DNA of 64,000 bases from Collinsella sp. (GTDB taxonomy: Bacteria; Actinomycetota; Coriobacteriia; Coriobacteriales; Coriobacteriaceae), in contig JAHYYL010000003.1 in the NCBI GenBank assembly GCA_019424965.1, positions 7,614-71,613 on the forward strand, written 5' to 3'. Position 1 is the stretch's first letter. Each line of letters starts with the position of its first letter. Positions 1-64,000 of the stretch are shown in pieces. The notes under the pieces are model-generated. The model had not been told where the DNA came from. It saw only the letters and a list, made by a program, of their open reading frames with translations, and made no database searches. Position numbers and translations under genes: made by a program.

Positions 1-651
1 GCCCGCATCCACGCGCTCGACGGCGCGAGCTTTACGGTCGAGCGCGGCGAGCTCGCCATCATTTTGGGTGCTTCGGGTGCCGGCAAGACCACGGCCCTCA
101 ACATTCTGGGCGGCATGGACACGGCAACTTCTGGCACCGTGACGGTGGACGGGCGTGACGTGAGCTCTGCCAACGAGGCTCAGCTTGTGGAATACCGTCG
201 CGCCGATGTTGGCTTTGTCTTTCAGTTCTACAATCTGGTCCCTAACCTGACGGCGCTTGAGAACGTCGAACTCGCGGCGCAGATCTGCCCCGATTCGCTC
301 GATGCCGAGCAAACGCTTCGCCAGGTTGGCCTGGGCGACCGCCTCGCTAACTTTCCGGCGCAGCTTTCGGGCGGCGAGCAGCAGCGCGTATCCATCGCCC
401 GCGCGCTGGCTAAGAACCCCAAGCTGCTTTTGTGCGACGAGCCTACGGGTGCACTCGACTACAAAACCGGCAAGCAGATCTTGCAGCTGCTACAGGACAC
501 TTGCCGCAAGCAAGGCATTACGGTCATCATCATCACCCACAACTCTGCGCTGGCGCCCATGGCCGATCGCCTGATCCGCTTTAAGAGCGGCCGCGTGGAG
601 AGCGAGACGATCCAGCAAAATCCTGTGCCTATCGAGACGATCGAGTGGTAG
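1..651 (+). CDS. ABC transporter ATP-binding protein (5' end lies outside window)
   Basis: Frame of ORF 64..651 stays open to base 1. Walker [10 protein letters not shown], signature LSGGEQQR, Walker [10 protein letters not shown]-loop ITHN. Stop overlaps the start of the downstream permease. Confidence 0.9.
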
Positions 652-3422
652 CGCCCATGAATCAGGACCGCCAAAACAGTCAACGCCGCGACGCGCAGAA
701 CACGGAGCGCGAGCAGGATTTTACGACCTACCGTACCGCCCAAAGCTCAAACGATATGGTGCCGACGGTTTTTCGCCGTGGCATCTACCGCACGATTCGC
801 GGCAGCCTCAAACGCTTCTTGTCTATCGTTGTGATCACCGCGCTTGGCGTGAGCGTGATGTGCGGCCTTAAGGCGGGCTGCGAGGACCTGTGTGATTCGG
901 TCGACGCCTATTTTGACCAGCAGAATGTCTATGACATCAACGTGCAGTCGACCTATGGTCTGACCGATGACGATATTGCCGCGATCCAAGAGGTCGATGG
1001 CGTCGAGACGGCCGAGGGCATCTATACCGAGACCGCCTATACCGCCGTGGGTACGACGCGCGAGCGTGTCGTCGTACAGAGCCTCTCCAAAGAGAATATT
1101 GACCAACCGGTGCTAGTGCGCGGCGAGCTGCCCGAGACTTCGGGCGAAGTGGCAGTGACCTCACGTTTTTTGAAGGCTTCGGGCAAGAAAATCGGCGATA
1201 CGGTGAGCTTTGCCGCCAACGATGCGAGCTCGTCGAACCAAAGCGCCAAGGACCAGTTTGCCGATGGGGACTACACCATCACGGCCGAGGTTCTCGATCC
1301 TACCGACGTGAGCTCCGACTCGACAGTCAACGCCTTTCGCGCTGCTTCGACTGCGGACTACAAGTTCTACGTGAGCGAGGATGCCGCGACATCTTCTTCC
1401 TACTCCGCTGTCCACGTGGTCGTCGAGGGAGCCAAGAGCCTCAACTCCTATTCGGATGCCTACTCGGCAAAGATCAATGAGGTCAAGGGCAATATCGAGA
1501 AGATCCGCGAGGAGCGTGAGAAGGCGCGCGCCCAGGAGCTGACGGTCGACACACCGGCGAGCTTGGACGCAGCTGAGCGTCAGGCGAATATGGTCTTTGG
1601 GATCGAGCAGGACAACATCAATCGCATGGCCGAGGGCAGCGACGAGCGTGCGCAGGCGCAAGCCGACCTGGACCAGCGCCGTGCCGCCGCCGACCAGCAG
1701 TTTGCCGATGCCCGCGCCGAGCTCTCTGACCTGGGCGAATGCACCTGGTACATCCAGGACCGCGATAACATCGCAAGCTACTCGAGCGTGGAGAGCGATA
1801 GCTCGTCAATTGAGGCCATTGCCACGGTGTTCCCGTTCATCTTCTTTATCGTCGCCGTGCTCATCAGCCTCACCACCGCCACGCGCATGGTCGAGGAGGA
1901 GCGCACGCTCATTGGCCTGTACAAGGCGCTCGGCTATTCGCGCGGGCGTATCCTGTCCAAATATGTGGACTACTCGCTGTGGGCGTGTCTGATCGGTGGC
2001 GTGCTCGGCAATATCATCGGATTTGTGGGTCTGCCGCTGTTCTTGTTTACGGTGTTCGACGACATGTACTCGCTGCCCCAGATGTTGCTTTCGTACGACA
2101 TCGTGTCATCACTCGTGTCGGTAGCGCTGTTTGCCGTGGGCGTGGTGGGCGCCACGATTATCGCCTGCCGCCACGAGATGGCTGAGACCCCAGCCTCGCT
2201 CATGCGCCCCAAGGCCCCGCGCGCCGGCTCGCGCATTCTGCTCGAGCGCATTGGCTTTATCTGGCACCGCATGGGCTTTTTGAACAAGGTCGCTGCACGC
2301 AACCTGTTCCGCTACAAAAAGCGCGCCTTTATGACCATCTTTGGCATTGCGGGCTGCACGGCGCTTGTGATTTGCGGTATGGGCATCCGTGATACGTCGG
2401 TCGCGCTGTCGCCCAAGCAGTACGGGCACATCACACGCTACGATTTGCTGGCGGTCGCCAATCCCGATGATTTTTCGCAGACGTGCGCGGCGTTGGATGA
2501 GCGCAGTGCAGCCAAGGATTCCGACGTGACCGTGACTTCGACGCTGCCGATTATGACCGACAACGTTACCTTTACATTCGGCGGAAAGAGCGAGACCGTG
2601 CAGCTGATCGTGGTGCCCGATGACCGCACGAACGACCTGGATGACTACGTGCGCCTAGAGGACGAGTCCAAAGAACCGCTCGCCCTGCGTGACGGGGATG
2701 TGTATTTGAGCAAGAGCTCTCAGCTGGTGCTGGGGATCAAGCCGGGCGATACGGCACACGTCCAGGATTCGTCGCTCAATGTTGCCAAGGTCAAAGTCAG
2801 CGACATCTCGCTCAACTATCTGGGGAACACGCTTTACATGACGCAGGGCACCTATGAGCGCGCGTTCGGTCGAAGTGCACGCCTTAACGGCGTCTTTGTG
2901 CTGCTTAAGGGTTCGTCGGCCGACCAGATTGCGTTTAGTAAGAATCTTAAGAGTGACGGTTGGCTTACGATTTCGAGTACGGCCGAGCATTGGGAAAACT
3001 ATGAGGCGAACTTTACGATTATCAATTCGGTCGTGGTGCTCGTGACCTTTATGGCGGCGTGCCTGTCGTTTGTGGTGGTGTTTACGCTGTCCAACACGAA
3101 TATCTCCGAGCGCGAGCGCGAGCTGGCGACCATTAAGGTGCTGGGCTTCCGCCGTGGCGAGGTGCACCACTACGTCAACAAGGAGACGTTGATCCTCACG
3201 GCGATTGGTGCCGCGCTGGGCGTACCGCTGGGTGGTGCGCTGGCCGAGAGCTTTACGTACATCTTGCAGATGCCGTCATTGTACTTTGACGTCGAAGTCG
3301 AGCCGCTGAGCTACGTGCTTGCCGTGGTGCTTTCCTTCGGCTTTACGATCATCGTCAACCTCGCTACCAATCGCACCCTCAATAAGATCGACATGGTCGG
3401 CGCCCTCAAGAGCGCCGAGTAA
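645..3422 (+). CDS. FtsX-family ABC permease, MacB-like, with two FtsX 4-TM blocks and a large extracytoplasmic region
   Basis: 925-aa ORF translationally coupled to the ATPase. N-terminal TM, a long soluble stretch with an Ala/Glu/Arg-rich helical segment, then two FtsX-type blocks (..LIGLYKALGYSRGRI.. and ..LATIKVLGFRRGEV..). GTG 645 or ATG 657 could be the start. Confidence 0.85.
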   Translation: MVAPMNQDRQNSQRRDAQNTEREQDFTTYRTAQSSNDMVPTVFRRGIYRTIRGSLKRFLSIVVITALGVSVMCGLKAGCEDLCDSVDAYFDQQNVYDINVQSTYGLTDDDIAAIQEVDGVETAEGIYTETAYTAVGTTRERVVVQSLSKENIDQPVLVRGELPETSGEVAVTSRFLKASGKKIGDTVSFAANDASSSNQSAKDQFADGDYTITAEVLDPTDVSSDSTVNAFRAASTADYKFYVSEDAATSSSYSAVHVVVEGAKSLNSYSDAYSAKINEVKGNIEKIREEREKARAQELTVDTPASLDAAERQANMVFGIEQDNINRMAEGSDERAQAQADLDQRRAAADQQFADARAELSDLGECTWYIQDRDNIASYSSVESDSSSIEAIATVFPFIFFIVAVLISLTTATRMVEEERTLIGLYKALGYSRGRILSKYVDYSLWACLIGGVLGNIIGFVGLPLFLFTVFDDMYSLPQMLLSYDIVSSLVSVALFAVGVVGATIIACRHEMAETPASLMRPKAPRAGSRILLERIGFIWHRMGFLNKVAARNLFRYKKRAFMTIFGIAGCTALVICGMGIRDTSVALSPKQYGHITRYDLLAVANPDDFSQTCAALDERSAAKDSDVTVTSTLPIMTDNVTFTFGGKSETVQLIVVPDDRTNDLDDYVRLEDESKEPLALRDGDVYLSKSSQLVLGIKPGDTAHVQDSSLNVAKVKVSDISLNYLGNTLYMTQGTYERAFGRSARLNGVFVLLKGSSADQIAFSKNLKSDGWLTISSTAEHWENYEANFTIINSVVVLVTFMAACLSFVVVFTLSNTNISERERELATIKVLGFRRGEVHHYVNKETLILTAIGAALGVPLGGALAESFTYILQMPSLYFDVEVEPLSYVLAVVLSFGFTIIVNLATNRTLNKIDMVGALKSAE

Positions 3423-3480
3423 CCTGCCTGGGATTCAAGCTGTAGCGAGCTGTAATGTACCACAACCGCATTTTTGCATA

Positions 3481-3524
3481 AACCGCCCCGCCGATTGCAT
3501 ATTTCGGCGGGGCGGTTGCTTTTT
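3481..3524 (+). terminator. Intrinsic terminator after the FtsX permease
   Basis: AACCGCCCCGCCGA / TCGGCGGGGCGGTT 14-bp stem followed by GCTTTTT. Confidence 0.8.
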
Positions 3525-3548
3525 GCCCGCGGGTACCCCAGGGGGCGG

Positions 3549-3751: not shown

Positions 3752-3815
3752 CCGCATCCAACCCCAGGCACTTGCAGCAAGAAGACGAATAGCCTCGGCC
3801 TCCCCGGTTACCGCA

Positions 3816-3936
3816 GGAGGCCCCAAGGCTTACCTCCCAAATCTTTCCGCAGGACGGAAGGACCCCGCCGCGCGAAGCGCGCAGCGGGGTCCTGACATGT
3901 CCGAGGACGATTTGGGAGGTAAGCCCTGGGGCCTCC
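3816..3936 (-). repeat. Nested long hairpin element P1 directly downstream of pfkA (same family as 59116..59250)
   Basis: 28-bp outer inverted repeat (GGAGGCCCCAAGGCTTACCTCCCAAATC / GATTTGGGAGGTAAGCCCTGGGGCCTCC, 1 mismatch). Inner stem GGACCCCGC/GCGGGGTCC. Read in the pfkA sense it carries GTCCTCGGACATG ... CGCGCTTCGCGC ... GTCCTGCGGAA, identical to the groEL-downstream copy. Confidence 0.7.
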
Positions 3937-3959
3937 GATGGGAGCAGTTCCAGCCGGGG

Positions 3960-5039
3960 CTATTCGTCGCCGAAGCTGATGCCCAACGCCTTGGCCTCGC
4001 GCACCAGATCGCTCTGGGGATCGACGTACTTGAGCTTGCCGGCGACCTCCTCGAGCGGCATGTGGCACATCTTGCCGTCACGCAGGGCAATCATGTAGCC
4101 AAACTCGCCGCGTAGGCACCCCAGTGCCGCCTCGACGCCGCACTGGGTCGCAAAGATGCGGTCCTGGGCGTCGGGTTGGCCGCCGCGCTGCGTGTGGCCG
4201 GGGATGGCGACGCGGGTCTCGCGACCAGTCTTGGCCTCGATCTCCTTGGCGATGTCGTAGACGATCGACGGACTCGTGCGCTCGGCGAGCTTTTTCTTGT
4301 ACTCCTTCTTGGGCAGCGCCGCGTCCTCCTTGGAGATAGCGCCCTCGGCGACGGCTACGATGGTAAAGCGGCTGCCGGTCTCCATGCGATGCTCGATGGT
4401 CTTGATGACGTTGTCCATGTCGTAGGGGATCTCGGGAATCAAGATGACGTCCGCGCCGCCCGCGACGCCGGCATACAGCGGAATCCAACCGACCTTGTGG
4501 CCCATGATCTCGATGACAAACACGCGGCCGTGACTCGAGGCGGTGGTGTGGATGTCGTCGATGCACTTGGTGGCGACGTCGATGGCGCTCGTAAAGCCAA
4601 ACGTCAACTCGGTGCCCCAGGTGTCGTTATCGATGGTCTTGGGCAGGGCGATAACGTTGAGGCCTTCTTCGCGCAGGCGGTTGGCGGTCTTGGTGGATCC
4701 GTTGCCGCCCAGCATAAACAGGCAGTCGAGCTGCAGCTTGTGATAGGTGTGGACCATCGCGGGCACCTTCTCGACACCATCGGCCTCGGGGGTATCCAGA
4801 CGCTTGAACGGCGTGCGGCTCGTGCCCAGGATGGTGCCGCCGCGGGTGAGGATACCGCTAAAATCGGCGGGCGTCATGACGCGGAACCTGCTGTAGATAA
4901 GGCCCTGGTAGCCGTCCTCAAAACCGTAGATCTCGATAGGTTCTTCGCTATTGGTCATAAGCGTTTTGACGATGCCGCGCATGGTGGCGTTGAGCGCTTG
5001 GCAGTCGCCGCCACTGGTAAGAAGACCGATCCTAAGCAT
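3960..5039 (-). CDS. pfkA: 6-phosphofructokinase
   Basis: 359 aa. MLRIGLLTSGGDCQALNA.. N-terminus, ..MLGGNGS.., ..PKTIDND.., ..HTQRGG.. PFK family motifs. Confidence 0.9.
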   Translation of the reverse strand: MLRIGLLTSGGDCQALNATMRGIVKTLMTNSEEPIEIYGFEDGYQGLIYSRFRVMTPADFSGILTRGGTILGTSRTPFKRLDTPEADGVEKVPAMVHTYHKLQLDCLFMLGGNGSTKTANRLREEGLNVIALPKTIDNDTWGTELTFGFTSAIDVATKCIDDIHTTASSHGRVFVIEIMGHKVGWIPLYAGVAGGADVILIPEIPYDMDNVIKTIEHRMETGSRFTIVAVAEGAISKEDAALPKKEYKKKLAERTSPSIVYDIAKEIEAKTGRETRVAIPGHTQRGGQPDAQDRIFATQCGVEAALGCLRGEFGYMIALRDGKMCHMPLEEVAGKLKYVDPQSDLVREAKALGISFGDE

Positions 5040-9349: not shown

Positions 9350-9400
9350 CTGCCAAAAAGGGACAGGTTTATTTTGGCAGGTTTTATCAGGCAAAACGTT
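9350..9400 (+). repeat. 52-bp intergenic repeat family, copy 2
   Basis: CTGCCAAAAAGGGACAGGTTTATTTTGGCAGGTTTTATCAGGCAAAACGTT. Confidence 0.85.
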
Positions 9401-9450
9401 CAAACGAAACGCCGGATGCATGGACGGTTGCAAGTCCATGCATCCGGCGT
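9401..9450 (-). terminator. Hairpin terminator after map
   Basis: Perfect 17-bp stem ACGCCGGATGCATGGAC/GTCCATGCATCCGGCGT, 8 nt after the map stop. Followed by TTCGTTTG on the minus strand. Confidence 0.65.
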
Positions 9451-9458
9451 CCGTGCGG

Positions 9459-10346
9459 CTACCAGCTCAGCAACTCGTAGCCGTCCTCGGTCACCACGAG
9501 CTGTACCTCGCACTGGGCCGAATCGCTACCGTCCTTGGTGCGCACACACCAACCGTCACCCTTGCTAATCTTGATGTCAGGCGCTCCGGCGTTGACCATG
9601 GGCTCGATGGTAAAGACCATGCCCGGGGCCATGATGGTGTCCGCGTCGGGCGCCTCGGTGGTAAAGCCCACAAACGGGTCCTCGTGGAACTCCTTGCCAA
9701 TGCCGTGTCCGCCGTACTCGCGCACCACGCTAAAGCCGGCGTCCTCTACCGTCTTTTGCACAGCCTCGGCCATAACAGAGAGCGGCAGCCACGGCTTGAC
9801 GGCGGCCAGGCCCGCTTCCACGCTGGCGCGGGTCACGTCGACCAGGCGCTGGCGCTCGGCAGAGACCTTGCCGATGCGGAACATGCGGCTCGAATCGCTA
9901 AAGTAGCCGTCCAGAATCGTGGAGCAGTCCACGTTGATGATATCGCCCTCGTGCAGCACGTCCGTATCGCAGGGGATGCCGTGACAGACCACATCGTTGA
10001 TCGAGGTGCATACGCTCTTGGGATAGCCCTCGTAGTTGAGGTCGGCCGGCGTGCCACCGTGCTCGATGGTGTAGTCGTAGATCATCTGGTCGATCTGGTT
10101 GGTGGTCATGCCCGCGGCGATGTGCTCGCCCACGTAGTCGAGCACGCCTACGTTGATGGCGGCCGAACGCTTGATACCCTCGATGTCGGCGGGTGTCTTG
10201 TAGAGCGTGCGGGGCAGAACCTCCCAGCCCTCTTCCCACAAGCGCTCGAGGCGCTCGTCGAAGGCGCTATGGCATTTCTTGTATTTTTTGCCGCTGCCGC
10301 ACCAGCAGGCGTCGTTGCGGCCGGGCACGGGTCCGTTGTCAAACAT
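9459..10346 (-). CDS. map: Type I methionine aminopeptidase with N-terminal SEC-C zinc-binding motif
   Basis: 295 aa. CWCGSGKKYKKCH SEC-C motif, then a MetAP core (..VCHGIP.., ..DIINVD.., ..GHGIG.., ..FTIEP..). Confidence 0.9.
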   Translation of the reverse strand: MFDNGPVPGRNDACWCGSGKKYKKCHSAFDERLERLWEEGWEVLPRTLYKTPADIEGIKRSAAINVGVLDYVGEHIAAGMTTNQIDQMIYDYTIEHGGTPADLNYEGYPKSVCTSINDVVCHGIPCDTDVLHEGDIINVDCSTILDGYFSDSSRMFRIGKVSAERQRLVDVTRASVEAGLAAVKPWLPLSVMAEAVQKTVEDAGFSVVREYGGHGIGKEFHEDPFVGFTTEAPDADTIMAPGMVFTIEPMVNAGAPDIKISKGDGWCVRTKDGSDSAQCEVQLVVTEDGYELLSW

Positions 10347-10392
10347 GGCTAACTTCCTTTCATTCGCAGCTAGTATAGCCCACCCACGCGTC

Positions 10393-10464
10393 CATAAAAG
10401 TTGCGGTGATATAGTTCCGATTTAAGCGGTTTAACAGCATAAATAGGAACTATATCACCGCAAC
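10393..10464 (-). terminator. AT-rich 19-bp perfect inverted repeat, likely terminator of the radical-SAM gene
   Basis: GTTGCGGTGATATAGTTCC (10400-10418) / GGAACTATATCACCGCAAC (10446-10464), 27-nt loop, followed on the minus strand by TTTTATGG. Confidence 0.5.
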
Positions 10465-10506
10465 TGATGGAGCGGGATGGCGGGCACTAGCTGCTGCGTG
10501 GTTTCG

Positions 10507-27337: not shown

Positions 27338-27401
27338 CGCGCTGGGGCACCGTGAATTTGCGGAGGCAGTGGCCCGCCGCGCCGGGACGGCATTGTTTGG
27401 G

Positions 27402-27449
27402 CATGCCTCTCCTTCGTCTACAATATCGGGCAGACGAAGGAGAGGCATG
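27402..27449 (+). promoter_or_regulatory. Perfect 18-bp hairpin that sequesters the RBS and start codon of the HAD hydrolase gene
   Basis: CATGCCTCTCCTTCGTCT (27402-27419) / AGACGAAGGAGAGGCATG (27432-27449). The 3' arm contains GAAGGAGAGG and the ATG at 27447. Confidence 0.6.
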
Positions 27450-28310
27450 TCCATGATCAAGATGTTCGCGAGTGACTTAGACGGAACGCTGCTGAACGCC
27501 CTGCACGAGGCGGATGGGACCATCCGCCGCGCCATTCGCGAGCTGACCGAGGCTGGCCTGCACGTGGTTCCCGCGACCGGACGCTCGACGCTGCCGATCG
27601 GCGAGCATGGCTTTACGGGGCTGGCGCTCGATGCCTGCTGCTCTAACGGCTCCATCGTGCGCGACAGCCATGGCGAGGTGCTCAAGACCTGGACCATCGA
27701 TCCGCAGATCACCGAGGAGCTGCTCAAGGCGTTCCCGGATATCTGTTTTGACTGCTCCACGCCCGACGGCATGTTTTCGAGCGGATCGTTCGAGATGCAC
27801 CAGGCGGGCTTTAAAAAGGACAGTCCCATCAAGCGCATCGTGATGCGTGGCATGCGTGCGCGTGGCGGCTATCACGAGGAACAGTATTTCGACCAGTCGA
27901 TTGGCGACATCTTGCGCCACGATGTGTGCAAGATCAACTGCCGCGTGACCTCGCGCGAGCTGGAGCGCGACCTTAAGGCGTATCTTGCCGAGCGTTCCGA
28001 TCGCGTGGTCAACGCGCCGTTTGACCCCGTTATGTTCGAGATTACGGACGTGACGTGCAACAAGGGCGAGAGTGTTGCCTGGCTGGCGGGCTACTACGGT
28101 ATTGCCGAGGACGAGGTCGCGGTCTACGGCGACGGTGGCAACGACATCGCCATGCTCAAACGCTTCCGCCACAGCTACGCGACCAAAAACGCTAGCGATG
28201 CAGCTAAGGCCGCCGCGAGCGCGACCATCGGCAGCTGCATGGCCCACGCCGTCCCCAAACACATGCTCGCCACCATGAGCAAGCAGAACTCCTGCACCAT
28301 CATCGAATAA
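27447..28310 (+). CDS. Cof-type HAD-IIB phosphatase
   Basis: Start MSMIKMFASDLDGTLL (motif I DxDGT). ..YGDGGNDIAML.. (motif IV). Confidence 0.85.
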   Translation: MSMIKMFASDLDGTLLNALHEADGTIRRAIRELTEAGLHVVPATGRSTLPIGEHGFTGLALDACCSNGSIVRDSHGEVLKTWTIDPQITEELLKAFPDICFDCSTPDGMFSSGSFEMHQAGFKKDSPIKRIVMRGMRARGGYHEEQYFDQSIGDILRHDVCKINCRVTSRELERDLKAYLAERSDRVVNAPFDPVMFEITDVTCNKGESVAWLAGYYGIAEDEVAVYGDGGNDIAMLKRFRHSYATKNASDAAKAAASATIGSCMAHAVPKHMLATMSKQNSCTIIE

Positions 28311-33935: not shown

Positions 33936-33963
33936 CTGGCCTGCTTTGGGCTGGATATGAGAC

Positions 33964-34001
33964 AAACGGGTGGTAGCCGTACCGGCTACCACCCGTTTTT
34001 G
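33964..34001 (+). terminator. Intrinsic terminator after the 1593-aa gene
   Basis: AAACGGGTGGTAGCCG / CGGCTACCACCCGTTT 16-bp stem followed by TTTTG. Confidence 0.85.
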
Positions 34002-34051
34002 CTGGACATATGTTGCGTAAATGGGCTTGTTGACGCCTTCAGCGGACTCGT

Positions 34052-39269: not shown

Positions 39270-39443
39270 ATAAAACTCCTTTGCGTATATCCGCTCCCCC
39301 GGGAGCGCCGCTACGGATACGGCGCGGGAAGTCGGGTTACCAAGGGCCGCCGCGTGAGCTCGCAAACGACCGCGCATCAGTATAGCGGCAAGGCAGCTCA
39401 TTTGGGACGGGGCTTTTTTAGCTGACCCAGGCTTGGGCCAAAG

Positions 39444-39521
39444 GATGATTATTCTGGGACGGGGATTTAAAAATCATCAGGTACGCAATGATTTTTAAAT
39501 CCCCGTCCCAGAATAATCATC
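39444..39521. repeat. 34-bp perfect inverted repeat (78-bp palindromic element)
   Basis: GATGATTATTCTGGGACGGGGATTTAAAAATCAT (39444-39477), loop CAGGTACGCA, then ATGATTTTTAAATCCCCGTCCCAGAATAATCATC (39488-39521). It lies in the divergent region between the OPT transporter gene and coaX. Confidence 0.9.
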
Positions 39522-39558
39522 GGGATATACTGCTGGGCAGACGAAAGGAGCGCCGACG

Positions 39559-57369: not shown

Positions 57370-59085
<1,716 letters not shown>

Positions 59086-59115
59086 GGCCGACAAGGTCTA
59101 GAACTCCCACCGGGA

Positions 59116-59250
59116 ATCCGGGGGCGGGACGGGGTTTCTCTCCGGAACGTCCTCGGACATGCAAAGAGGCTCCGCATCGCGCTTCGCGCTGCGGAGCCTC
59201 TTTGCGTCCTGCGGAATGTTCCGGAGAGAAACCCCGTCACGCCCCCGGAT
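59116..59250 (+). repeat. Nested long hairpin element P2 directly downstream of groEL (same family as 3816..3936)
   Basis: 33-bp outer inverted repeat (ATCCGGGGGCGGGACGGGGTTTCTCTCCGGAAC / GTTCCGGAGAGAAACCCCGTCACGCCCCCGGAT, 1 mismatch). Inner stem CAAAGAGGCTCCGCA/TGCGGAGCCTCTTTG. Carries GTCCTCGGACATG, CGCGCTTCGCGC and GTCCTGCGGAA as in P1. Confidence 0.7.
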
Positions 59251-59454
59251 CCCCTGCGTTTACGGCCTTGAGGTCGGCTCGCGGAGAAGGTCGTGGTTGA
59301 TAGGAGTACGTGTCCCTTTCGCTGTTTCGCGCTTTGCGCGAAAGGCGCGCTACTTTGGGATGGGTGGGGAACGTGGTTGTTGCGGCAACTGATCCCCGCC
59401 ACAAATTACCCTCGGCATACTTGCGCGAACGATTGCTCGTGCTACACTTGCAAG

Positions 59455-59640
59455 TGCTGTTTCAGGGCGGGGTGGAATTCCCCACTGGCGGTAAACCGGG
59501 CGGTGCCAAAGGGGTGCCGTGGCGCAGGCGAGGCGTCTGCGACCGAGCCGATGAGTCCGCGACCCGTGTGTGCGTTGGTTCGCATGCCGGCTGAACTGGT
59601 GAGATTCCAGTACCAACGGTTAGAGTCCGGATGAAAGAGG
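59455..59640 (+). promoter_or_regulatory. FMN riboswitch (RFN element)
   Basis: ..TTTCAGGGCGGGGTGGAATTCCCCACTGGCGGTAAA.. and ..AACTGGTGAGATTCCAGTACCAACGGTTAGAGTCCGGATGAAAGAGG.. match conserved RFN cores. The P1 3' strand abuts the ribU RBS. Confidence 0.85.
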
Positions 59641-59651
59641 CAGGTGATCTT

Positions 59652-60242
59652 ATGTCTGAACAGTCGCAGCATATCCATTTTGAGAACACGAATAGGTGGA
59701 GCACCAAACAGCTCGTTACCATGGCGCTGATGTGCGCCTTGGGTGCCCTGTTTATGTATGTGCAGCTGCCCATTCTTCCCTCGGCGCCGTTTTTGACGTA
59801 TGACCCGTCGCTGGTGCCGGCGATGGTGTGCGGGTTTGCGTATGGTCCCGGCGCCGGTACCGCTGTTGCCGCTATGGCTATCGTTATCCATGCGCTCACC
59901 ACGGGTGACTGGGTCGGCGCGCTTATGAACTTGGTTGCTACGCTGGGTTATATTCTGCCCGCGGCTATCGTCTACCAGAAGATGCATACCTATAAGGGTG
60001 CCGTGATTGGTCTGGTGCTCGGCGTTATTGCCGCTACGGCGTTGTCTATGGTCGCAAACCTTACCATTGGCGTATGGTTCTGGTATGGCTCGGTTGATGT
60101 GATCGCCCCGCTCATGATTCCTGCCGTGCTGCCGTTCAACCTCATCAAGACCGTGCTCAACTCGGTATTGACGCTGGCGGTGTACAAGGCGGTCTCTAAT
60201 CTCATCACGCCCAAAAAGGACCAGGTAAAAGGTCGCGCATGA
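59652..60242 (+). CDS. ribU: ECF transporter S component for riboflavin
   Basis: Start MSEQSQH... 6-TM S-component-like sequence immediately behind the FMN riboswitch. Stop overlaps the ecfA start (ATGA). Confidence 0.8.
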   Translation: MSEQSQHIHFENTNRWSTKQLVTMALMCALGALFMYVQLPILPSAPFLTYDPSLVPAMVCGFAYGPGAGTAVAAMAIVIHALTTGDWVGALMNLVATLGYILPAAIVYQKMHTYKGAVIGLVLGVIAATALSMVANLTIGVWFWYGSVDVIAPLMIPAVLPFNLIKTVLNSVLTLAVYKAVSNLITPKKDQVKGRA

Positions 60243-63882: not shown

Positions 63883-63918
63883 CCAGCTGGCTCATCCTAA
63901 CAACTTGGTTTCGCATGG

Positions 63919-63972
63919 GCGGGCCCCGTATTGCCCGGCGCCGTTAGGAGCGCCGGTCAATACGGGGCCCGC
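63919..63972 (+). terminator. Long GC-rich hairpin after the second PNPOx-like gene
   Basis: GCGGGCCCCGTATTGCCCGGCG / CGCCGGTCAATACGGGGCCCGC (about 22 bp) with loop CCGTTAGGAG. The T-run is weak. Confidence 0.5.
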
Positions 63973-64000
63973 TCCATTTGTCAATTCCTTCAAGCGAATG

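Follow-up and report, generated by a model that had tools for sequence, protein, structure and literature searches.

Two palindromes behind pfkA and groEL

The window analyzed here is a stretch of 64,000 nucleotides from Collinsella sp. (assembly GCA_019424965.1, contig JAHYYL010000003.1), and its subject is a pair of long hairpin-forming elements that lie just past the stop codons of two genes, pfkA (ATP-dependent 6-phosphofructokinase; 3960–5039, minus strand) and groEL (57448–59085, plus strand), each in the same orientation as the gene upstream of it. Both belong to a dispersed repeat family, whose members are near-perfect palindromes of about 120–150 bp. From the outside in, the members are composed of site-specific outer arms of about 28–38 bp, a conserved asymmetric core, a site-specific inner stem and a GC-rich apex.

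Copy 1 occupies 3816–3936 on the minus strand, and the base of its hairpin lies 23 nt past the pfkA stop codon (3960–3962). The intervening linker (3937–3959) contains CTCCCATC, an instance of a left-flank motif CTCCCAYC that is also present at several other sites of the family. The 5′ half of the outer arm (3909–3936, GGAGGCCCCAGGGCTTACCTCCCAAATC) is followed by the 5′ core motif GTCCTCGGACATG (3896–3908), in which UCC and GGAC are paired to the 3′ core motif and AU(G) is bulged. The inner module (3856–3895) has a site-specific stem, GGACCCCGC/GCGGGGTCC, with a UG bulge on its 5′ side, and ends in a 5-bp GC helix with a UUC triloop; the central 12-mer CGCGCTTCGCGC lies at 3870–3881. The 3′ core motif GTCCTGCGGAA (3845–3855) and the 3′ half of the outer arm (3816–3844, AGATTTGGGAGGTAAGCCTTGGGGCCTCC) complete the hairpin, and a conserved right flank, TGCGGTAAC (3807–3815), comes straight after it; all of these parts are read on the minus strand. 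The predicted fold of copy 1 is −108.3 kcal/mol, compared with −57 for shuffled sequences (z = −12.0).

Copy 2 is on the plus strand at 59112–59254, with its base 26 nt past the groEL stop codon (59083–59085) and a linker (59086–59111) that contains AACTCCCACC. Its outer arm halves (59112–59148 and 59217–59254) enclose the same two core motifs, GTCCTCGGACATG at 59149–59161 and GTCCTGCGGAA at 59206–59216, and between these lies an inner module (59162–59205) with the stem CAAAGAGGCTCCGCA/TGCGGAGCCTCTTTG, a 5′ bulge and an apical GCGC-TTC-GCGC hairpin; the central 12-mer CGCGCTTCGCGC is at 59178–59189. The conserved right flank is TGCGTTTAC (59255–59263), and the fold is −127.6 kcal/mol against −63 for shuffles (z = −16.1).

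An earlier reading of the window, the first-pass annotation, had noticed that both copies are built in the order outer arm, GTCCTCGGACATG, inner stem, CGCGCTTCGCGC, inner stem, GTCCTGCGGAA, outer arm, and this architecture stands, as does its observation that the three motifs are identical in the two copies. Each of the three has exactly two perfect matches in the window, confined to copies 1 and 2; when two mismatches are allowed in the first, 1.96 matches are expected from shuffles. The same annotation took the motifs to be unpaired, which they are not: they are mostly paired to each other (UCC with GGA and GGAC with GUCC), and the unpaired remainder of the core is a U·C mismatch, a bulged U, the AU bulge and a 1×2 loop. 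Its outer stems are indeed self-complementary, but the statement that they share no sequence is wrong in that both follow a weak consensus (..GGGYTWACYTCCCAAAWC), and the 33-bp stem given for the groEL copy grows to arms of about 37 bp. The inner stems do differ in sequence between the copies while each remains self-complementary. The placement shortly after a stop codon and the co-orientation with the gene hold at the distances given above, and the reported lack of a U-tract holds as well; the hairpins run directly into TGCGGTAAC and TGCGTTTAC, a terminator scan is empty there, and the same scan gave no other terminator-like site between the stop codon of pfkA or groEL and the next gene.

The statement that the element belongs to no named RNA family also survives comparison with Rfam 15, whose sole match in the window at gathering score is an FMN riboswitch, with none on the two elements. 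When the threshold is relaxed to E ≤ 10, both elements attract only generic microRNA-like and small-RNA-like hairpins far below gathering scores, and Collinsella-1 (RF01700), which is in Rfam, is absent among the matches up to E = 10 on either element. The literature search found no description of a palindromic repeat from Collinsella; a published catalog names Collinsella motifs without giving their sequences and so is not comparable (PMC8040213). The family is real and robust and apparently undescribed, a repeat of a familiar kind in a new lineage. The FMN riboswitch itself (RF00050, 93.6 bits; 59454–59646, plus strand) lies about 200 nt 3′ of the groEL element and overlaps the start of an open reading frame at 59631–60242.

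A dispersed family in the C. aerofaciens clade

The first-pass annotation had proposed a search for further copies, and there are many, with stems that differ and are nevertheless complementary, so that a simple recent duplication does not explain the pair. A dispersed repeat family was not among the roles that it had considered. When 185,579 species-representative genomes were scanned for the two outer motifs 30–60 nt apart, the exact pair was found in at least 119 contigs, and essentially all of these are Collinsella among the matches listed; the other labels among them are one Treponemataceae contig and a few "uncultured bacterium". Sorted by their arms, the copies among the matches listed fall into about 22 classes, that is, distinct sites. 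The Treponemataceae contig (CAVCKO010000001.1, locus L078) is metagenome-assembled and carries a typical Collinsella copy with Collinsella-type flanks, and its label is probably the result of mis-binning or contamination.

Only exact motifs could be matched in that scan, and the invariance of the motifs among its matches is thus partly built in. Copies with changed cores were found by mismatch-tolerant and covariance-model searches of flanking sequence (GTCCTCGCACTTG...GTGCTGCGGAA, GTCCTCGACCATG...GGTCTGCGGAG, GTCCTCGGGCATG...CCCCTGCGGAA, and a short form GTCCTCGccgcttcgcggCTGCGGAA), and they reduce the strict invariants to GTCCTCG and CTGCGGA(A/G). The core words of the element are GTCCTCG and CTGCGGAA, and the family core, GTCCTCG(GAC)AUG ... 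(GUC)CUGCGGAA, forms a short helix with fixed bulges in which the 3 bp between the invariants and the inner module (GAC/GUC) covary to ACC/GGU and CAC/GUG. The central 12-mer varies across the family (CGCRCTWCGYGCG, and in some copies GCTCCTTCGGAGC), and the inner stems and apices come in many versions, such as CGCGCTTCGCGC, CGCACTTCGTGCG and CGCGCTACGCGC. The apical hairpin is GC-rich with a UNC triloop, which on the opposite strand is a GNA triloop. In the outer arms the core-proximal half follows the consensus mentioned above, and outside the hairpin the flank words are CTCCCAYC on the left and TGCG-N-TAAC (TGCGNTAAC) directly 3′ of it on the right. The helix levels are bracketed alike, as YC/GG...CC/TGCG.

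A census independent of the exact motifs was made by covariance-model search of 400 kb of NZ_OY725717.1 (C. aerofaciens). It contains five members, or about one copy per 80–100 kb, which gives roughly 25 in a genome; four lie co-oriented after pfkA, thrB, a P-type ATPase gene and a glycosyltransferase gene, and the fifth is a diverged copy between pnp and rnj. The record is labeled "plasmid 6" of C. aerofaciens TSDC17.2-1.1 (899,693 bp; loci L128–L135), is syntenic with the window and carries recA, rho, pnp, many ribosomal-protein genes, pfkA and thrB; it is a piece of the chromosome filed as a plasmid. Within the window, the covariance model R1 recognizes only copies 1 and 2 as members, its other matches being unrelated long hairpins.

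At every orthologous site examined in the C. aerofaciens complex (1–22 genomes per site) occupancy is 100%. The element is still present where the PfkA relatives are 91–96% identical, and no family member was found in 92 kb of sister species with 85–89% PfkA identity, including C. intestinalis, and the family has accordingly expanded in the C. aerofaciens clade, to which it is confined. These sister species have ordinary short hairpins after pfkA. In two of them CCGCAGG...CCTGCGG stems follow the gene; the idea that such stems are a terminator theme common to Collinsella, and connect the core with ordinary terminators, was considered; the window shows no enrichment of them, and they were left as a coincidence. 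No empty site could be defined from the distant species (85–89% PfkA identity), which have lost synteny and whose flanks are not alignable, nor from the groEL homologs, whose top 120 matches are all at least 95% identical and nearly all 99–100%.

At six of ten sites, conservation of the arms between genomes exceeds that of the next 200 nt (0.91–0.98 vs. 0.67–0.88). A special mutational mechanism that makes the arms hypervariable was entertained from the glpF site, where they are 63–79% identical and the 400-nt flanks 85–97%, and it was ruled out by the ten sites together, over which the arms are as conserved as the next 200 nt or more so. The glpF, ppc and grcA sites do carry several arm and inner-stem "alleles", together with hybrids that cross over in the conserved core. 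In one metagenome-assembled genome the asymmetric core of the pfkA-site copy is inverted relative to the flanks (locus L049, 191–338), and at loci L027 and L100 arms from different sites are joined. Contigs end inside the element in L125 (end, 4963) and L127 (end, 5123), and many groEL contigs are about 2.28 kb long; some of the inter-site chimeras (L027 and L100) may therefore be assembly artifacts. After the grcA-like gene of L115 (3300–3640, minus strand) lies the sole short form found, which is without the inner module (GTCCTCGccgcttcgcggCTGCGGAA again), and about 70 nt further a second copy has unrelated AT-rich sequence in place of its left arm, the break falling exactly at the edge of the core.

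Irregularities of this sort are what a selfish, nonautonomous mobile palindrome of the REPIN or miniature inverted-repeat transposable element (MITE) type might leave behind. Such an element would be tolerated just past stop codons, its core would be the site for a mobilizing enzyme such as a Y1/HUH single-stranded DNA transposase, and any effect on termination would be incidental. The multicopy, lineage-restricted distribution (with no member in the sister-species sequence), the strand-specific orientation, the alleles and hybrids at single sites, the short variant and half element of L115 and the contigs that break at the element all agree with mobility, and the bulged hairpin resembles the imperfect palindromes of IS200/IS605 and REP elements. 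Against it, neither an empty site in the complex nor a target-site duplication is seen; GGAGGCC recurs around the pfkA copy, with nothing equivalent at other sites, and was rejected as such a duplication. The distal arms, which are the termini, are the most variable columns, the opposite of MITEs, and neither consistent flanking direct repeats nor presence/absence polymorphism occurs at orthologous sites. In 940 kb, neither solo halves nor full-length parents of the element were found, and the arms, as noted, are conserved as well as or better than neighboring DNA. Only IS21, IS30, IS256 and IS1249 are annotated in the 400 kb, with no transposase of the IS200/IS605 type; the exact motif pair has no match in viral contigs, and in PLSDB the pfkA copy matched one record only, the mislabeled chromosome piece. 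Mobility of this kind is thus a tentative alternative that we consider rather unlikely. Nested insertion of a simple unit (YC/GG-hairpin-CC/TGCGNTAAC) into its own loop, by which the element could have grown, is not supported: in 464 kb only full family members show the flank motif behind a hairpin, and free one-level units were not seen.

Placement behind genes

The positions of copies 1 and 2 are typical of the family. Fifteen of 18 independent sites lie 8–30 nt past the stop codon of a co-oriented gene; among the sites from the motif scan this is true of 13 of 15, and in the unbiased census four of five copies are co-oriented with the upstream gene, so that the first-pass observation of a co-oriented and often likely highly expressed upstream gene extends to the family as a whole. 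Orientation is also kept between genomes, in 20 of 21 at the pfkA site and in 14 of 15 at the groEL site.

The upstream genes, named by Pfam, are mostly genes of glycolysis or fermentation or encode a chaperone. They include pfkA, groEL and the genes for class-II fructose-bisphosphate aldolase (fba), iron alcohol dehydrogenase (adh), a GrcA-like glycyl-radical protein, an MIP/GlpF channel, pyruvate:ferredoxin oxidoreductase (PFOR), homoserine kinase (thrB), PEP carboxylase (ppc), phosphotransacetylase (pta), branched-chain aminotransferase (ilvE) and OppF, as well as one unnamed gene (the site of L110 and L009). The GC content at their third codon positions, a weak proxy for high expression, is above background (median 0.817 vs. 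0.771; one-sided Mann–Whitney p = 0.006). At the adh site the next gene downstream is preceded by an AT-rich region of its own.

The GC skew is uniformly positive where copies 1 and 2 lie, and the two are opposite to each other, each following its own gene; orientation therefore seems to track the gene rather than the replication fork (n = 2). The alternative, that it is set by the direction of replication, was set aside on this weak counter-evidence from two copies. Locus L099 was considered as a convergent gene pair with one copy behind each gene, and this was dropped on finding that no co-oriented gene precedes the second copy.

A possible role at transcript ends

The reading we prefer, at roughly even odds (a probability of about 0.5), is that this lineage-specific dispersed palindromic repeat acts as a transcript-end hairpin without a U-tract, as a terminator, an exonuclease barrier or both, and that its core is read by a protein. 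The element would be transcribed as the 3′ tail of the upstream mRNA and would form a hairpin of about 60 bp by which the transcript is ended or protected, as a terminator (probably factor-assisted), as a barrier to 3′-to-5′ exonucleases, or as both; a protein, such as an RNase III-type or another double-stranded-RNA-binding factor, might then dock at the conserved bulged core or cleave it. What argues for a strand-specific role at the transcript level is that the core is conserved in its asymmetry, that the element is co-oriented with the gene, and that its distance from the stop codon varies little. The 400 kb also include the genes for PNPase, RNase J, RNase Y and Rho.

A number of observations weigh against such a role. 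The element lacks a U-tract, yet terminators with a hairpin and T-tract are present in the same window (3469–3530 and 33950–34012); the first of these, on the plus strand, serves a convergent gene of 925 amino acids (645–3422), and the organism thus uses ordinary intrinsic terminators as well. With mycobacterial RNA polymerase, intrinsic terminators reportedly need a U-tract (PMC3993855). Many likely highly expressed genes in the 400 kb, among them those for ribosomal proteins, tsf, adhE and ppdK, have no copy. Three sites depart from the placement rule: the L006 class adjoins the start of a divergently transcribed gene, L099b is a diverged copy upstream of a tRNA promoter, and the pnp–rnj copy (L130, 2504–2641) is antisense to pnp and the RNase J gene, a diverged copy with 38-bp perfect arms and the core GTCCTGCAC...GTGCGGAA. 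Unusually stable DNA mini-hairpins of the d(GCGAAGC) type have a GNA loop like that of the element's opposite strand. Finally, among the isolated mismatches of the outer arms, G·T and A·C are equally frequent (19 each), with no excess of wobble pairs, and the sense RNA is just 2.4 kcal/mol more stable than the antisense, of about 110 kcal/mol.

The last two points bear directly on how covariation in this family is to be read. The consensus fold has 50 pairs, 38 of which show double changes; across 48 sequences 97.5% of cells are paired and both-side changes occur at 39 of the 50 pairs. None of 500 shuffles reaches the observed pairing, and slid registers do not come close either. The covariation that the first-pass annotation had proposed to check is therefore present in massive amount, but it does not have the meaning expected of it. 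GC-to-CG flips are as frequent as transition-type changes, and this pattern (no G·U excess, flips, and strands of nearly equal stability) is that of a palindrome, so that the helices alone cannot separate RNA from DNA. The inference that conserved loops and covarying helices point to selection on RNA structure does not follow, as the whole element is a long DNA palindrome; the covariation is what any self-maintaining palindrome shows and is no proof of an RNA. Complementarity of the arms is probably upheld at the DNA level, by template switching within the palindrome or by conversion, rather than by RNA-specific selection.

Might the element then act as DNA? It could form a cruciform or single-strand hairpin behind heavily transcribed genes and serve as a topological, protein-binding, recombination or inversion site; gyrase and IHF, for example, bind the BIME elements of Escherichia coli. 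The perfect Watson–Crick arms with no tolerance for wobble pairs, the GNA triloop on the opposite strand, the association with central-metabolism genes, the flipped core of L049 and the chimeras with a crossover within the core (L005, L083, L027 and L100) are all in keeping with this. A symmetric function, however, predicts neither the strong co-orientation nor the stop-codon distance of 8–30 nt; flips are rare (1–2 of about 120), and the chimeras that join different sites, which are from metagenome-assembled genomes, may be errors of assembly. A role of the DNA itself therefore appears improbable to us.

A free-standing structured noncoding RNA (a small RNA, ribozyme or riboswitch-like element with catalytic or ligand-binding loops) is hardly to be entertained. 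The first-pass argument that internal-loop nucleotides are conserved between variable helices, and the lack of a match to known families, would agree with one, but the element is a single unbranched hairpin in which bulges of 1–3 nt are too small for a pocket or junction; it lacks its own promoter and is present in about 20 copies per genome behind unrelated genes. Nor does the conserved ATG open a conserved reading frame. The pfkA copy does contain a 22-codon open reading frame that starts there; the inner length, at 40, 42 or 44 nt, puts different copies in different frames, no ribosome-binding site is present, and a small peptide was rejected.

Dispersed palindromes at gene ends are well known in other bacteria. 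REPs are 20–40 nt long, number hundreds per genome, have a conserved 5′ GTAG and are linked to RAYT, a Y1 transposase, and their sequence is conserved throughout the hairpin; REP hairpins stabilize upstream mRNA and bind gyrase and IHF, and REPINs are long hairpins made of two inverted REPs. Like the REP, BIME and REPIN elements of enterobacteria and Pseudomonas, the Collinsella element is extragenic, palindromic, multicopy and located at the 3′ ends of genes. It differs from REPs in its length of 120–150 nt, in having no GTAG and in being conserved only in the core and flanks, and no RAYT is annotated in the 400 kb of C. aerofaciens, which is part of the genome. Correia and ERIC elements carry terminal inverted repeats that are conserved, duplicate their target (TA for Correia) and occur in both orientations; they are co-transcribed with their neighbors, and RNase III or RNase E processes their RNA hairpins, with altered mRNA stability. 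The present element shares with Correia (Neisseria) and ERIC (Yersinia and other enterobacteria) its intergenic position, palindromic nature and size range of about 100–150 bp, whereas its termini are its most variable part, no duplication is seen and its orientation is biased. It has in common with canonical intrinsic terminators a GC-rich hairpin shortly 3′ of the stop codon at the end of a transcription unit, but it has no U-rich tract of 7–9 nt, its stem is about five times longer, and its motifs are common to unrelated genes. Integron attC sites have R″ and R′ boxes (RYYYAAC ... GTTRRRY) at the foot of an imperfect hairpin, with cassettes and an integrase alongside; the bases of the Collinsella hairpins, unlike these, read GG...CC/TGCG, and their neighbors are housekeeping genes.

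The closest parallel is the Tuberculosis Rho-independent terminator motif (TRIT), of which 147 conserved palindromic copies are present at Mycobacterium gene termini and for which a double-stranded-RNA-binding factor has been proposed (PMC3152330). The Collinsella element is likewise lineage-restricted in an actinobacterium, palindromic, conserved in both sequence and structure and present in many copies at gene ends with no canonical U-tract, and as a conserved palindromic motif placed within 8–30 nt after stop codons it has the narrow positioning of the TRIT type. TRIT mostly overlaps the stop codon (around −8), is largely bidirectional and is restricted to Mycobacterium (PMC3152330). The two appear to have no sequence relationship, and the Collinsella element has about 20–25 copies, lies past the stop codon rather than over it, is 2–3 times longer, surrounds an asymmetric core with site-specific arms and has a strong orientation preference. 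Given the reported restriction of TRIT to Mycobacterium, it can be an analog but not a member. It is best read, by analogy, as a possible Collinsella counterpart of REP/BIME and, more closely, of TRIT.

The core (GUCCUCG / CUGCGGAA, with its 5′ AU bulge, apical UG bulge and UNC triloop) could be the recognition or cleavage site of a dedicated Collinsella protein, a candidate that for now seems doubtful. Were this protein a double-stranded-RNA-binding termination or processing factor, it would represent a new factor-dependent, U-tract-independent way of ending transcripts in Coriobacteriia; were it instead a single-stranded-DNA enzyme of the HUH/Y1 type, it would be part of a REP–RAYT-like system new to this class. 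The uniform YC/GG...CC/TGCG bracketing would in that case reflect repeated use of one protein site, or growth by self-insertion into the hairpin. C. aerofaciens is among the most abundant Actinomycetota in the human gut, and to our knowledge almost nothing is known of how its transcripts end; the family may offer a handle on U-tract-independent termination and mRNA stabilization in Coriobacteriia, with the core as a candidate protein-binding site. On the practical side, the repeat breaks short-read assemblies and may create chimeric joins in metagenome-assembled genomes, and it merits masking or annotation in Collinsella genomes and an entry in RNA and repeat libraries.

Five further long near-perfect palindromes with stems of 17–34 bp are present in the window, at 39434–39532, 10387–10477, 27386–27466, 63903–63988 and 9393–9465. 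None of the five shares a motif with the Collinsella family, and the first is AT-rich (41% GC). Another unrelated palindrome lies outside the window about 110 nt 3′ of an L006-class element (L008, 1500–1590, minus strand), with 21-bp stems GTTGCGGTGAAATAGGGACTG...CAGTCCCTATTTCACCGCAAC.

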